Source: a virus (lineage: Duplodnaviria; Heunggongvirae; Uroviricota; Caudoviricetes). Taken from it: a stretch of 8,063 bases of DNA. This document shows positions 2,596 to 8,063 of this stretch, one piece after another; position 1 is the first letter of the stretch; each line of letters opens with the position of its first letter. The position numbers and the translations under genes are program-made. The DNA lies in IMG/VR virus record IMGVR_UViG_2600254977_000002. The stretch is one strand, 5' to 3'. Under the pieces are notes generated by a model. The model did no database searches, had not been told where the DNA came from, and saw only the letters and a list, made by a program, of their open reading frames with translations.

Positions 2596-3426
2596 ACCGG
2601 ACTCCTCCTGCGATCCCTTCTGATACTGTCATCAGCATTACGTCATCCTCCGTCATGCCCGCCATATCCGGGGAAGCGGGGATAACTTCATTCCCGTCCG
2701 GGCCAAAGCGGACGCCTCCGGTAAGCCCTGCCGCTTTCTGCATCAGCACATCATCTTCAGGCTCTTCGTCATCCTCACGCCGGTTCAGCAAACTGAAATC
2801 CAGCGGATGCATATCCGGATCGCTGAAAAACAGGCTGAGCACAGTGTACGTCAGCCCGGAAAAGTGCATATCCAGCAGAACATCATGAAAATAATGGGTA
2901 CTGTAAAAGCGGTGCCAGTCGGCATACTCCGTGGATGACATCCCGGCAAGCATGGCGCGCCAGTCAGGTCGCCCCATCTCTCGCGCCAGTTTCAGGGCAA
3001 AACTCAGCTCACCGTCGAACACTTTCCCGCAGAAACAGGCTCTGCAGGCCCGGAGTCCTCTGCCTGGTCAGGGGCATCATTCACCACAAACCCATACATA
3101 CCGGACAGCCGGTACACCACGTTTTCAGCATGAGAAATTGCCTCCGCGGGCCAGGTGGTAAGCACTTCCTGCTCAATCTGTTTAACGGCTTCATTCATGG
3201 AAGGCTGCTTTGTCTTCTGCGGATGGTTATGCCACAGGGACATCGCCACCACAAAAGCACCGGTTCTGATGGCGTCTTCCACAGTAACCTGCCGGTTGCT
3301 GTCTGACTCCGCCTGTTCTGCCTGCTGTTTCATCAGGGCGAGATGCTCAATACGCTGCAGGGCTGACAGTTCAGAAAGCGTGACGGTCACGCCGTTATGT
3401 TCAAATGATTCGGTTTTCAGGAACAT
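2588..3426 (-). CDS. T: Tail assembly chaperone G-T fusion (lambda gpGT-like), made by -1 programmed ribosomal frameshift at 3028..3022; T portion is 2588..3022
   Basis: The ORF 2588..3022 (MFDGELSFALKLAREMGRPDWRAMLAGMSS...) matches recalled lambda gpT. The T frame is -1 relative to G and has no independent ribosome-binding context. The slippery heptamer G GGA AAG sits at the G/T junction. Confidence 0.88.
3004..3426 (-). CDS. G: Tail assembly chaperone (lambda gpG-like), 140 aa
   Basis: MFLKTESFEHNGVTVTLSELSALQRIEHLALMKQQAEQAESDS...AGKCSTVS is near-identical to recalled lambda gpG. GGAGAG Shine-Dalgarno lies upstream of the ATG at 3426. Confidence 0.93.
   Translation of the reverse strand: MFLKTESFEHNGVTVTLSELSALQRIEHLALMKQQAEQAESDSNRQVTVEDAIRTGAFVVAMSLWHNHPQKTKQPSMNEAVKQIEQEVLTTWPAEAISHAENVVYRLSGMYGFVVNDAPDQAEDSGPAEPVSAGKCSTVS
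3022..3028 (-). other. -1 programmed ribosomal frameshift slippery site (GGGAAAG) for G to G-T
   Basis: Plus strand 3022..3028 is cTTTCCC, so the minus strand reads G GGA AAG in the G frame (codons 134-135, ...A-G-K-C-S-T-V-S-stop). After -1 slippage the next codon is GTG (3022..3020), the first codon of the T ORF. Confidence 0.85.
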
Positions 3427-5171: not shown

Positions 5172-5525
5172 TCAGCGGCGACGGCTGGCGGCAGGTGGTT
5201 GCCCCCGGTTGAGCCAGAGATAACAACTCCCTCCGTCATCCGGAGAAACACGGTCCACCCAGAACATCTCGCCGTTAATGGTCAGCGTGTCACCACGCCG
5301 TACAGCACAAACCGTATCCGTAAGCACAAATAATGACGGGTTACTTCCTTCAATACGGATCCCACTACTGGCAAAACCCAGCGACTCCGGATCGTCAAAA
5401 ACGCCATGAACCTCGCCGCCACGCTGTGCACCGGAGGTGAACTGCGCACTGATGCCCATCACTTCAACAATCGTACTGTCCACCCCGGCAAGGGCGGCAT
5501 CAAAGGCATTCTGAAAATCACGCAT
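5172..5525 (-). CDS. FII: Head-tail joining protein (lambda gpFII-like), 117 aa
   Basis: From the internal Met at 5525..5523: MRDFQNAFDAALAGVDSTIVEVMGISAQFTSGAQRGGEVHGVFDDPESLGFASSGIRIEGSNPSLFVLTDTVCAVRRGDTLTINGEMFWVDRVSPDDGGSCYLWLNRGQPPAASRRR. It is collinear with recalled lambda gpFII and becomes increasingly similar toward the C-terminus (…FWVDRVSPDDGGSC…). The start overlaps the FI stop (5518..5520). Confidence 0.9.
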   Translation of the reverse strand: MRDFQNAFDAALAGVDSTIVEVMGISAQFTSGAQRGGEVHGVFDDPESLGFASSGIRIEGSNPSLFVLTDTVCAVRRGDTLTINGEMFWVDRVSPDDGGSCYLWLNRGQPPAASRRR

Positions 5526-5892
5526 AAACAGCCATTCCACCATCAACGTGTGTTTTTGCATCTGAGGACATAATCAGAATCACCCGACCAACATCCGCAA
5601 GCTCAACGGATTCCCCCGTTTCACCATCAACGCCACAGAGATGGAGGCAGGTCAGAACTCTGATGCGCGTTAACGCGCCGGATGTTTCCTCACGAACATC
5701 ATGAGCCGCGGTTTCCCGCTCCCGGATATCCATATTCATAACCTGTACATCATCGCCGGATGACTGCATTTCCTCTTCCCATTCTGCCACCCGCTGCGCT
5801 ATCTCTGCGGCACTCCCGGATATATCCGGCTCACGCCCCAGAATCAGGGCCAGTTCATCAAGCCGTTTCAGATTTTGCTCTTTCGTTGCCAT
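5518..5892 (-). CDS. FI: DNA-packaging / head completion protein (lambda gpFI-like), 124 aa
   Basis: From the Met at 5892..5890: MATKEQNLKRLDELALILGREPDISGSAAEIAQRVAEWEEEM..., resembling the recalled lambda gpFI N-terminus (MTKDELIARLRSLGEQLNRD...ELALRVAELKEEL). AGGGGG Shine-Dalgarno lies 6-8 nt upstream. The track start at 5940 is an unlikely upstream extension running through a hairpin. Confidence 0.85.
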   Translation of the reverse strand: MATKEQNLKRLDELALILGREPDISGSAAEIAQRVAEWEEEMQSSGDDVQVMNMDIRERETAAHDVREETSGALTRIRVLTCLHLCGVDGETGESVELADVGRVILIMSSDAKTHVDGGMAVYA

Positions 5893-5904
5893 ATCAGCCC
5901 CCTG

Positions 5905-5935
5905 TGAAAAAAGACACGGGGGCATTTCGCCCCCG
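5905..5935 (-). terminator. Putative intrinsic terminator or attenuator hairpin between E and FI
   Basis: On the minus-strand transcript: 5'-CGGGGGC GAAAU GCCCCCG-3' (7-bp GC stem at 5935..5917, 5-nt loop), followed by UGUC and UUUUUU (5912..5907). It lies 9 nt after the E stop codon and just upstream of the FI Shine-Dalgarno and ATG. Confidence 0.4.
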
Positions 5936-5943
5936 CTCACGGA

Positions 5944-6972
5944 TTATTTCACCTGTACCACCACAAACTCATCCGGGTCCGGCAACACCATCAGCGGCGC
6001 GGACTGCGTCATGGTAAATTCACGGGCGGGATCCCCTACCGTCAGCCAGTGTTTCGGATAACGGGAAGAGGCCACCACACCTTCGGACAACGCCTGAGCA
6101 TCCTGAATGGCACCGTAACAACGGATCCCATCTGCAGCAGTATTCCCCAGAACCAGCATGCCATCTGGAAGATAACGTTTTTCGATACCGTCTTCTGCTA
6201 TATAAGACGTTTTCGCCACCACAATGGCCAGATCGCCGTAATACCCCTTGAAGGACACCACTGCGCCCAGATCTTTCACTGCCGTTTCGAGTTGAGAATT
6301 TGAACCGCGACGGGTATCCAGTTTTTCGCGGAACAGCTTAAAACCATTCAGAAGACGCCAGACGGTACCGTCCATAATGGCAATATTCACAAGACCGCTG
6401 GCCAGGTCGCAGTAGAGGTCAATATCATGTGTAGGATCGAACGTGTCACGATCCTGTTTTGACCACTCCTTACCACTACCCTGAGTGATGTTATTCTTCG
6501 TCGACCTGCCAAAATCGACCTCAATTTTCTCGAACTGGTCTCCTTCCATGGTGTATTTGCCATACAACACAGCATTTACCGCCTGCATTTCTTCCACCTG
6601 GACAATCGCGTGCTCTTCCTGTTTGAGGTTATCGGTAATGATACGCAGACGGCGGTAAGCCGGATCATTCAGTTGAGATGGATCTTCACCAGGAAGGCGC
6701 TCAACCGCCTGCTGGTAATTAAATTCGTGTTTCGGCTTGACGTAGCCCGGACGCAACACGCGGGTTTCACCACCACGATGACGCAGCACTTTTCCTTCAA
6801 CAACCGGGGAGACATAGGCCGCCACCGGCGTTTTTCCGGTAATTTTGTCCAGCATCACCTCTTCGGTATGGAAATTCACCGTACGGCGGAAAAACAGCTC
6901 CAGAAACAGCGCACGAAATTTAACTTTTTGTTCGGTATAACCGAGTAACTGGCGGGTCGTAAACAATCCCAT
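5944..6972 (-). CDS. E: Major capsid protein (lambda gpE-like), 342 aa
   Basis: MGLFTTRQLLGYTEQKVKF...PGYVKPKHE...VEEMQAV...KLDTRRGSNS.LETAVKDLG...GDPAREFTM.QSAPLM...DPDEFV.VQ is collinear along its full length with recalled lambda gpE (341 aa), with many conserved blocks. AAAGGAAC Shine-Dalgarno lies upstream of the ATG at 6972. Confidence 0.93.
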   Translation of the reverse strand: MGLFTTRQLLGYTEQKVKFRALFLELFFRRTVNFHTEEVMLDKITGKTPVAAYVSPVVEGKVLRHRGGETRVLRPGYVKPKHEFNYQQAVERLPGEDPSQLNDPAYRRLRIITDNLKQEEHAIVQVEEMQAVNAVLYGKYTMEGDQFEKIEVDFGRSTKNNITQGSGKEWSKQDRDTFDPTHDIDLYCDLASGLVNIAIMDGTVWRLLNGFKLFREKLDTRRGSNSQLETAVKDLGAVVSFKGYYGDLAIVVAKTSYIAEDGIEKRYLPDGMLVLGNTAADGIRCYGAIQDAQALSEGVVASSRYPKHWLTVGDPAREFTMTQSAPLMVLPDPDEFVVVQVK

Positions 6973-7000
6973 AAATCAGTTCCTTTCATTCAGAAATCAG

Positions 7001-7022
7001 TCAGGCCACCGCGGTGGCCTGA
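7001..7022. other. 22-nt perfect palindrome (potential RNA hairpin or dimeric protein site) in the D-E intergenic region
   Basis: tcaggccaccgcggtggcctga equals its own reverse complement, giving a 9-bp GC-rich stem and a 4-nt CGCG loop in RNA. It sits 8 nt downstream of the D stop and 28 nt upstream of the E ATG on the minus-strand mRNA. Confidence 0.5.
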
Positions 7023-7029
7023 TAACGTG

Positions 7030-7377
7030 TTACGGCAGCGCCGCGTGACTCAGGGCACTGCCAGCAAAGGCGTTGGCCTTTTTGTGTTCATCCACACTTT
7101 CAGGCCAGTGGATTGCCTCCGTCGCAAAGGTTCCCGACTTGTAATACGTCAGCGCCGTCTCTGTGCCTTCAAGCGGCAGTACCAGTATGCCAACCGCACT
7201 ACCGGCTTTCTGTCCGTCCCAGACCACCAGTTTCCCGGTGGCTTCATCCAGCATCAGGGGCGTCAGTGCCGGTGTTGGCGAGGAAATCCCGCTGCTGCCT
7301 GTGGCGGTATGAGCCGGATCATTACCGGCAAAAATACGTACTTCCGCACGCTGTTCAGTGATGGTTTTCGTCACCAT
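7030..7377 (-). CDS. D: Head decoration protein (lambda gpD-like), 115 aa
   Basis: MVTKTITEQRAEVRIFAGNDPAHTATGSSGISSPTPALTPLMLDEATGKLVVWDGQKAGSAVGILVLPLEGTETALTYYKSGTFATEAIHWPESVDEHKKANAFAGSALSHAALP shares the DPAHTAT...TPLMLD...WDG...VGIL...YKSGTF...AFAG blocks with recalled lambda gpD. Strong AGGAGG Shine-Dalgarno lies upstream. Confidence 0.92.
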   Translation of the reverse strand: MVTKTITEQRAEVRIFAGNDPAHTATGSSGISSPTPALTPLMLDEATGKLVVWDGQKAGSAVGILVLPLEGTETALTYYKSGTFATEAIHWPESVDEHKKANAFAGSALSHAALP

Positions 7378-7413
7378 ATTGTAAAAACCTCCTATTGATG
7401 GTCAGCACTGACT

Positions 7414-8063
7414 TCATGGCATGGCCATGAGCATTTTCACGTCCGCATCACCGTCTGCTGACGTCTGTGCCACGCCACCCTGTACCGCTGCCGGTGAATG
7501 GTTCGCCATGAAATGTTCAAACATGGCGGTTGTGGATGCAGAGACCGGTTCTGCCTTACCTGATCCCGCAGCCAGCACAGCCCGGGCGCTCTCCACTGTC
7601 ATTCCCGGGCAGGCAGCCAGCTGTTCAGCCTGCGCCTCAGCCCCTTTTGCCTCATCCAGTGCCATGATCTGATCACGGAGTGATGGTCCGGCATCCGCCT
7701 GCGGTGAAGCAGCCAGGATCGGGCGGGCTTTTTCCACCGTCATCTCCGGCATCGCCGCCAGCGTTGCCGCCAGTTGTTCACGACCGTTCGCTTCTTCACA
7801 CACCATAATGCGATCGGCTTCACTCTGCGTGGATGCCACCGGCTGCTGCGGTGCCGCCGCGGCCAGAATCGCCCGGGCCTGTTCAACGCTCATGCCCTGT
7901 TGTCCTGCCAGCATCGTGGCAAGCTGTTCACGTCCTTTCGCTTCCTGGCATGTCAGGATCCCCATCACTCGCTGGTTCTCCTGCGCGGCGGCTTCCGTTG
8001 CAGTTAATTGCGGCATAGTGCCTCCTCTGACATTACTGTTCAGCGCCGTGGCCATCACACTGA
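7414..8063 (-). CDS. C: C-terminal part of head maturation protease / nested scaffold (lambda gpC / Nu3-like); 5' end lies beyond window end
   Basis: The translation contains ENQRVMGILTCQEAKGREQLATMLAGQQGMSVEQARAILAAAAP, matching the recalled lambda gpC/Nu3 C-terminal motif ENSRIMGILNCEEAHGREEQARVLAETPGMTVKTARRILAAAP. The in-frame codon at 8061..8059 is AGT with no stop, so the frame stays open to the window edge. The stop is at 7414..7416. Confidence 0.88.
   Translation of the reverse strand, partial: SVMATALNSNVRGGTMPQLTATEAAAQENQRVMGILTCQEAKGREQLATMLAGQQGMSVEQARAILAAAAPQQPVASTQSEADRIMVCEEANGREQLAATLAAMPEMTVEKARPILAASPQADAGPSLRDQIMALDEAKGAEAQAEQLAACPGMTVESARAVLAAGSGKAEPVSASTTAMFEHFMANHSPAAVQGGVAQTSADGDADVKMLMAMP
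7567..7971 (-). repeat. Three tandem in-frame copies of a ~35-40 aa scaffold motif (IMxxxEAxGREQLAxxLAxxPGMTVExARxILAA) within C/Nu3
   Basis: Copy 1 is residues ~30-68 (7855..7971), copy 2 is ~83-117 (7708..7812) and copy 3 is ~130-164 (7567..7671) of the in-window ORF. The spacing is 47-53 codons, and the similarity is also visible at nucleotide level (e.g. GAAGCGAA[A/C]GG[A/T]CGTGAACA[G/A]CT). Confidence 0.8.

Follow-up and report, generated by a model that had tools for sequence, protein, structure and literature searches.

The RNA between the major capsid gene and the FI gene of Escherichia phage 21 folds into a compact GC-rich hairpin with a U-rich tail. On the comparison of junction sequences reported here, this hairpin is the local version of a positionally conserved element that stands behind every sampled capsid gene of the E family. 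As far as can be read from sequence, the census of the lambda-E family shows that a hairpin behind the capsid gene is near-universal and that it is under selection for both its stem and its T-tract. We consider it probable that the element acts as a hairpin of the Rho-independent terminator type that is read through under Q21, with residual termination, protection of RNA 3' ends and the stopping of polymerase lacking Q as its combined contributions.

The capsid-FI junction of phage 21

The window, by which we mean the whole stretch of viral DNA that was analysed (8,063 nt; IMG/VR record IMGVR_UViG_2600254977_000002), is 100% identical over positions 5500..7400 to Escherichia phage 21, for which both a 'head gene operon' entry (M81255.1) and a complete genome (OL657228.1) are available. 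The late operon runs along the minus strand of the window. Gene names and coordinates were taken from the OL657228.1 annotation and checked with Pfam, and a window position w was converted to a position x in OL657228.1 by x = 13325 - w. The genes and codons that frame the junction are the following:

Ending at 7414, minus strand: gene 6, the Nu3 homologue (OL657228.1 annotation)
7030..7377, minus strand: shp, head decoration protein, the lambda D homologue (Pfam PF02924, HDPD, 1.2e-24; annotated in M81255.1 and OL657228.1)
5944..6972, minus strand: gene 7, major capsid protein, the lambda E homologue (Pfam PF03864, Phage_cap_E, 6e-64; M81255.1 and OL657228.1)
5946..5944, minus strand: stop codon TAA of gene 7 (sequence)
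5518..5892, minus strand: ORF1, homologue of the DNA packaging protein FI (Pfam PF14000, Packaging_FI, 2.6e-16; M81255.1 and OL657228.1)
5892..5890, minus strand: ATG of ORF1 (FI) (sequence)

The Pfam matches for gene 7 and ORF1 agree with an earlier note on this DNA, made from the letters alone, which had named capsid gene E and FI as the flanks of the hairpin. Downstream of ORF1 the gene order is FII, Z, U, V, G/GT and H (OL657228.1). By the OL657228.1 coordinates, gaps of more than 50 nt in the stretch from gene 6 to H are found only at shp/gene 7 and at gene 7/ORF1, the other genes abutting or overlapping. No terminator is annotated in the gene 7-ORF1 gap in M81255.1 or OL657228.1, the sole feature there being the ribosome binding site of ORF1; OL657228.1 does annotate late-operon terminators elsewhere, between I and J and after J.

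Other features of these genes were recorded alongside. The heptamer GGGAAAG at 3022..3028 (minus strand), at the end of gene G, matches the slippery sequence of the lambda-type G/GT -1 frameshift and agrees with the joined GT coding sequence in OL657228.1; it has one match in the window against 1.24 expected by chance. Sigma-70-like hexamers (CTGACC-16-TACAAT; 7378..7405, minus strand) fall within the 36 nt that separate gene 6 (Nu3) from shp, and promoter-like matches across the window are at chance level (3 found, 3.8 expected). Three 'Tri box' repeats, their function stated as unknown, are annotated inside gene 6 in M81255.1 (window 7414..8058); a search of the gene 6/Nu3 region for direct repeats with a 9-nt seed returned none, so the annotated repeats must be degenerate. 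The record of Aeromonas phage AP1 (MT713136.1) includes 245 nt (250152..250396) that are 99.6% identical to phage 21 gene 7. This match falls in an unannotated part close to the end of the 254-kb jumbo-phage sequence and may be an assembly chimera or contamination.

The gap between gene 7 and ORF1 is 51 nt long and is filled by the hairpin element, whose parts are listed here in the order of the RNA:

5937..5943, minus strand: UCCGUGA, the spacer from stop codon to hairpin, predicted to pair as the 5' strand of an outer helix with UCAC-GGG (5907..5900)
5929..5936, minus strand: 5' arm of the hairpin, GCGGGGGC (sequence and fold; pairing kept in all 12 variants of the 21 type)
5924..5928, minus strand: loop of the hairpin, GAAAU (sequence and fold)
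5916..5923, minus strand: 3' arm of the hairpin, GCCCCCGU (sequence and fold; its alternative partner is the FI Shine-Dalgarno region)
5907..5915, minus strand: U-rich tail, GUCUUUUUU, with six consecutive U at 5912..5907 (sequence and terminator scan)
Between the tail and the GGGGG of the FI Shine-Dalgarno, minus strand: CACA spacer (sequence)
5898..5903, minus strand: Shine-Dalgarno of FI (ORF1), AGGGGG (annotated ribosome binding site in M81255.1 and OL657228.1)

The stem consists of 8 bp, seven G-C pairs and one G-U pair, and closes a loop of 5 nt, both within the sizes expected of intrinsic terminators (stems of about 5-14 bp, loops of 3-8 nt). It starts 7 nt past the gene 7 TAA and the hairpin ends 23 nt before the ORF1 ATG, in non-coding RNA. 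The sequence CUGAU separates the FI Shine-Dalgarno from the AUG (5892..5890), and the GGGGGC of the 5' arm is repeated by this Shine-Dalgarno together with C5897. The earlier note had described a 7-bp all-GC core with a 5-nt loop in the minus-strand RNA, followed by a U-tract and placed directly 3' of the E stop codon; all of this held, with the G-U pair lengthening the stem by one.

RNA folding, which had been proposed as a check, gave a stable structure. The hairpin alone reached -16.8 kcal/mol, inside the range of -12 to -20 kcal/mol covered by the terminators annotated in the phage 21 genome. The 38-nt element at 5943..5906 reached -17.7 kcal/mol (z = -3.0; 2 of 200 dinucleotide shuffles folded as well), whereas the wider 81-nt window around the hairpin was unexceptional (z = -1.2). 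For the whole intergenic RNA the minimum-free-energy structure (-24.3 kcal/mol) was the terminator form plus the predicted outer helix, UCCGUGA/UCAC-GGG, which takes in the first G residues of the FI Shine-Dalgarno. In a terminator scan of the window the gene 7/ORF1 hairpin ranked first, among 15 terminator-like matches where 6.9 were expected.

Past the GC core the tail reads U-G-U-C-U6, with 6 U among the first 8 nt. The U-tract is thus split from the stem by G-U-C, unlike the U-tracts of the annotated phage 21 terminators. An interrupted stem-proximal U-tract weakens termination in terminator studies, and a d'Aubenton-Carafa-type score, by approximate hand arithmetic, described a borderline-to-moderate terminator. 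Apart from this imperfect stem-proximal U-tract, the element fits the structural definition of an intrinsic terminator, with termination as its predicted activity.

Rfam 15, run over the whole window at the gathering threshold, returned no match. A terminator for antisense transcription was considered and rejected: the plus-strand hairpin has no T-tract behind it and was absent from the scan output. Upstream of its ATG the FI frame stays open across the hairpin as far as a GTG at 5940, which makes a 140-aa ORF (5518..5940, minus strand). An in-frame AUG at 5925 spans the loop and 3' arm, with no Shine-Dalgarno evident, and the upstream extension of 16 open codons is not unusual.

The second of the two long gaps, between shp and gene 7, holds a sister hairpin:

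7001..7022, minus strand: UCAGGCCACC-GCGG-UGGCCUGA followed by CUGAUUUCUG (terminator scan and sequence)

The products of D and E are the head proteins needed in the largest numbers, in about equal amounts. Thus the genes for the two most-needed products are each trailed by a hairpin of the terminator type.

Conservation across the lambda-E capsid family

Loci of capsid relatives came from four IMG/VR queries and from one genome per species, searched with a protein-alignment query. Each capsid match was extended to its stop codon and the downstream sequence was extracted. The resulting census covered 308 loci, which reduced to 92 distinct junction sequences and then to 25 independent hairpin types, the E proteins of which range in identity to phage 21 from 100% down to 28%. 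A hairpin was counted if a compact GC-core stem folding at -8 kcal/mol or lower lay no more than a few tens of nucleotides past the stop codon. As controls we used 594 windows tiled through capsid (E) coding sequences.

A compact GC hairpin was present just past the capsid stop in 25/25 types, compared with 13% of the control windows. When at least 4 T were demanded in the 8 nt past the GC core, the proportions were 76% of the types and 0.5% of the controls, and with at least 5 T they were 60% and 0/594; the mean T count past the GC core was 4.7 in the types and 1.5 in the controls, a contrast that is somewhat overstated, since the control windows are coding sequence, which has fewer T than intergenic DNA. 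From type to type the hairpin sequences show no relationship, and what is conserved is position and shape, as the following examples illustrate:

21 type: CGGGGGC-GAAAU-GCCCCCG
Providencia: CGGCGGG-GAAA-CCCGCCG
A further enterobacterial type: GGCGGG-AUAUU-CCCGCC
Vibrio: GGGGAGC-UUA-GCUUCCC
Shewanella: GGAGGC-UUUU-GCCUCC

In types with a long gap to FI, the T-tract adjoins the hairpin and not the Shine-Dalgarno, which points to the architecture of an intrinsic terminator rather than to a U-rich translation enhancer. A minority of junctions (L090, L226, L163 and L323) has the hairpin without a T-tract, an example being CGGGGCC-GGAA-GGCCCCG followed by AAAUGAGG in L226, and the stem is more universal than the tail among E-family junctions. 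Its conservation across the capsid-gene family shows, by comparative criteria, that the hairpin with its T-tract is under selection, in keeping with an element of the terminator type. The D/E junction has a hairpin in nearly all the other types as well, usually with a cleaner T run; that of lambda is GCCGC-CUGU-GCGGC followed by UUUUUUU.

Lambda, with which the earlier note had suggested a comparison, also has a hairpin at the E-FI position, AUGGCCC-UUCG-GGGCCAU followed by UGUUUCUCUG (NC_001416 7163..7180), behind the homologous capsid gene and before FI. Like that of phage 21 it combines a GC stem with a small loop and has a U-rich tail that is interrupted, and it too is unannotated in its record. 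It differs in being unrelated in sequence and shorter in the stem (5-bp GC core plus two A-U pairs, -12.3 kcal/mol), in starting 2 nt past the stop codon, and in the pairing of its 3' arm with the FI Shine-Dalgarno, which is worth only -1.2 kcal/mol.

Variation within types was also assessed. In the 12 distinct sequences of the 21 type, standard pairs occur in 96/96 pair cells; sliding the partner by 1-3 columns lowers this to 48-71%. Variation was seen at five of the eight stem pairs, as single transitions to G-U at four of them and as a double change from G-C to A-U (CGGGAGC/GCUCCCG) at the fifth. In the 18 sequences of the lambda type 96% of the cells are paired, and the two outer pairs show exchanges between U-A and C-G (4 sequences) and between A-U and G-C (2 sequences); the covariation score of this type was reached by 0/500 column shuffles, a significance that is overstated because the sequences are related. 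The pairing signals within types are modest, and the weight of the argument lies on the result between types.

These comparative data make it very unlikely that the hairpin arose by chance or survives as a functionless, neutral relic. The ordinary 81-nt context and the abundance of terminator-like matches in the window would suit such an origin, but the local z-score, the recurrence of a hairpin at the same position in all 25 unrelated junction types, and stem substitutions that keep the pairing in the 21 and lambda types speak against it.

Of 5426 complete E. coli genomes, 1538 (28%) have the 21-type junction in a prophage, among them O145 strain RM9872 and Nissle 1917. Capsid genes and hairpins of the 21 type that are nearly identical are followed by at least two different FI alleles, beginning MATKEQNLKR... 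and MATKEENLNR... (L311, L296, L300, L316). The differences between these alleles start at the Shine-Dalgarno (about 5895..5905), which places a mosaic recombination boundary close to the hairpin. Many short contigs from unrelated organisms carry lambda E (L093-L108, L126, L129, L132, L138 and L143-L153), under labels that include Kitasatospora, Bradyrhizobium, an Akkermansia MAG, Corynebacterium, Enterococcus and others; where they extend to the E-FI junction, it is that of lambda. These assemblies look contaminated with lambda DNA.

Alternative pairing with the FI Shine-Dalgarno

Two partners are available to the 3' arm, GCCCCCGUG: it can pair with the 5' arm, giving the terminator form, or with CAC-A-GGGGGC, which includes the FI Shine-Dalgarno, giving a sequestered form. 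The two forms are mutually exclusive, with the 3' arm in common, and isoenergetic (-15.6 to -16.8 kcal/mol for the sequestered form, -16.8 kcal/mol for the terminator form). Over the whole intergenic RNA the added outer helix UCCGUGA/UCAC-GGG tips the predicted balance to the terminator form, and blocking at least 10 nt past the stop codon, which a terminating ribosome might do, switched the predicted fold to the sequestered form. When duplex energies of the 3' arm were calculated for 41 ribosome-binding regions of phage 21, that of FI was the best partner (-15.1 kcal/mol), followed by one at -11.9 kcal/mol, with a median of -5.1 kcal/mol. Variants in which the arm reads CGGGAGC (L217, L235) likewise have GGAGC or CGGGAGC in their Shine-Dalgarno region.

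Such features would be expected of a translational switch for FI, restricted to the 21 type. In phage 21 and its closest relatives the element would then be a two-state RNA, its 3' arm common to a terminator hairpin and a hairpin that buries the Shine-Dalgarno, and what happens at the E stop 7 nt upstream, for instance the melting of the 5' arm by a ribosome that terminates there, could toggle FI translation. If this were so, the ribosome ending at the capsid stop, or the termination of transcription, would set how much of the FI packaging chaperone is made per capsid protein. We regard such a switch as quite unlikely. Over the 25 types, the mean duplex energy of each arm with its own Shine-Dalgarno was -4.49 kcal/mol, against -4.40 kcal/mol for cross-pairs (permutation p = 0.40), so that no conserved pairing was detected. 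Even within the 21 type, the alternative hairpin is less stable in 43/128 loci, at -13.8 to -4.7 kcal/mol, owing to Shine-Dalgarno variants such as GGAGGC, GAGGGC and GGAGAC, and G-rich Shine-Dalgarno sequences pair with C-rich arms by nature. The predicted accessibility of the FI ribosome-binding region is also ordinary, at 0.45 against a family median of 0.54 and within the family range, and was hardly altered by masking the 5' side.

The suggestion in the earlier note that the Shine-Dalgarno could pair with the 3' arm therefore stands for phage 21, where the two forms balance, and fails as a conserved property of the family; we rejected the pairing as a general feature and kept it as a lineage-specific possibility. 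A general occlusion of the FI ribosome-binding region was likewise rejected, as the unpaired probability had a median of 0.54 over the types and was unchanged with the 5' side masked.

Proposed read-through, termination and RNA stabilisation in the late operon

Late transcription of phage 21 proceeds from pR' and is Q21-dependent. Q21 forms a nozzle on the RNA exit channel of the polymerase that extrudes single-stranded RNA, so that pause and terminator hairpins are prevented, and it acts processively, remaining attached over tens of thousands of nucleotides (bioRxiv 10.1101/651190). The proviso in the earlier note, that expression downstream would be lowered unless transcription is antiterminated by Q, was thus apt. 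Since essential tail genes and at least two annotated terminators lie downstream, most late transcription must read through the hairpin. The action of Q21 on terminator hairpins makes strong attenuation of late transcription unlikely, and favours a reading in which the element stabilises RNA and terminates residually.

During lytic growth, we infer, the operon would be transcribed by Q21-modified RNA polymerase, most of which would read through the hairpin, while a minority of transcripts would end there by residual termination. Once an endonuclease had cut the message, the hairpin would block 3'-to-5' exonucleases, and the shp-7 (D-E) RNA would thereby outlive the RNA for head completion and tail downstream. 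Polymerases that never acquired Q would be stopped at the hairpin. Overall, capsid and decoration protein would be made in excess of the proteins encoded downstream.

The element could instead be a true attenuator, at which the Q21-modified polymerase itself terminates substantially, so that less RNA would be synthesised for FI, and for all the head-completion and tail genes further down, than for the capsid gene. The conserved terminator architecture, with its T-tract adjoining the stem, fits this proposal; T-phi of T7 acts in this way behind its capsid gene (bioRxiv 10.1101/647024), and antitermination in another phage-like cluster passes only some polymerases (PMC11150451). We nevertheless consider an attenuator unlikely. 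Between D and E there is another terminator of this kind, often a stronger one, and this argues against strong step-down termination, which would be counterproductive between two genes needed about equally. Moreover, at least two more annotated terminators precede essential tail genes, and the late tail genes would be starved of transcription if termination were strong at every one of these sites.

It is also conceivable, though decidedly improbable in our view, that the hairpin has no lytic role and serves only to stop Q-less transcription, arising in the prophage state or from spurious internal promoters, from entering the late genes. This is one possible role proposed by the phage L authors (bioRxiv 10.1101/2020.10.05.325894), and it fits with the conservation of the T-tract, which matters only for a terminator-sensitive polymerase. 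A pure safeguard leaves unexplained, however, why the elements stand exactly behind the two most-needed head genes in every lineage and not at module boundaries generally.

The stabilising component of the preferred explanation, a terminator-type hairpin that is mostly read through, has parallels in bacterial operons. Intercistronic stabiliser hairpins occur in Rhodobacter puf, in the E. coli malE-malF REP and in the pap pilin operon, where a stem-loop ends the more highly expressed upstream cistron and has been proposed or shown to block 3' exonucleases, giving unequal levels of mRNA segments within one operon. In phage 21 a stable stem-loop likewise stands at the 3' end of the more abundantly expressed cistron (gene 7, with the sister hairpin after shp), the greater abundance of the capsid and decoration products being taken from virion stoichiometry, and by structure and position the hairpin is a candidate intercistronic mRNA stabiliser. 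None of the puf, malE-malF and pap stabilisers needs a U-tract. In the E family, by contrast, the T-tract shows strong conservation, which brings the element closer to a genuine intrinsic terminator than to a simple barrier against decay. Blocking exonucleases alone would not call for a T-tract, and its conservation points to an interaction with RNA polymerase, which Q should abolish. A search of the literature for 3'-end mapping or half-life data on the lambda or phage 21 late operon found none.

Comparable elements have been described in other phages. T-phi of T7 lies directly behind major capsid gene 10, and RNA reads drop past it (bioRxiv 10.1101/647024). It is like the phage 21 element in being a terminator-type hairpin right behind the most abundantly needed structural gene, but it acts on T7 RNA polymerase in a phage without a processive antiterminator, whereas phage 21 uses the host polymerase with Q21. 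In the P22-like phage L, a predicted Rho-independent terminator ends the procapsid module within a late operon antiterminated by a Q-type protein, gp23 (bioRxiv 10.1101/2020.10.05.325894). Here too the terminator stands behind the coat-protein module inside an antiterminated late operon, and both elements are predicted only, although phage L has another capsid gene family and another morphogenetic module. Phage transcriptomes commonly contain weak terminators by which read-through is tuned (PMC9163698). The phage 21 element is best filed as a previously unannotated instance of the terminator-type hairpins that lie behind major capsid genes inside late operons.

Phages need hundreds of capsid subunits for every few completion and tail proteins, and have to make them from one long transcript. 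The phage L paper calls the role of terminator-like hairpins inside antiterminated late operons unknown (bioRxiv 10.1101/2020.10.05.325894). Taken by itself, the phage 21 locus is an ordinary regulatory feature of known type. What is new here is the census, by which hairpins behind the capsid and decoration genes of the lambda-E family are near-universal and selected for shape, and which turns an anecdote into a testable rule for this capsid family. As the 21-type junction is common in E. coli, RNA-seq or Term-seq during induction could separate termination, RNA stabilisation and insulation.
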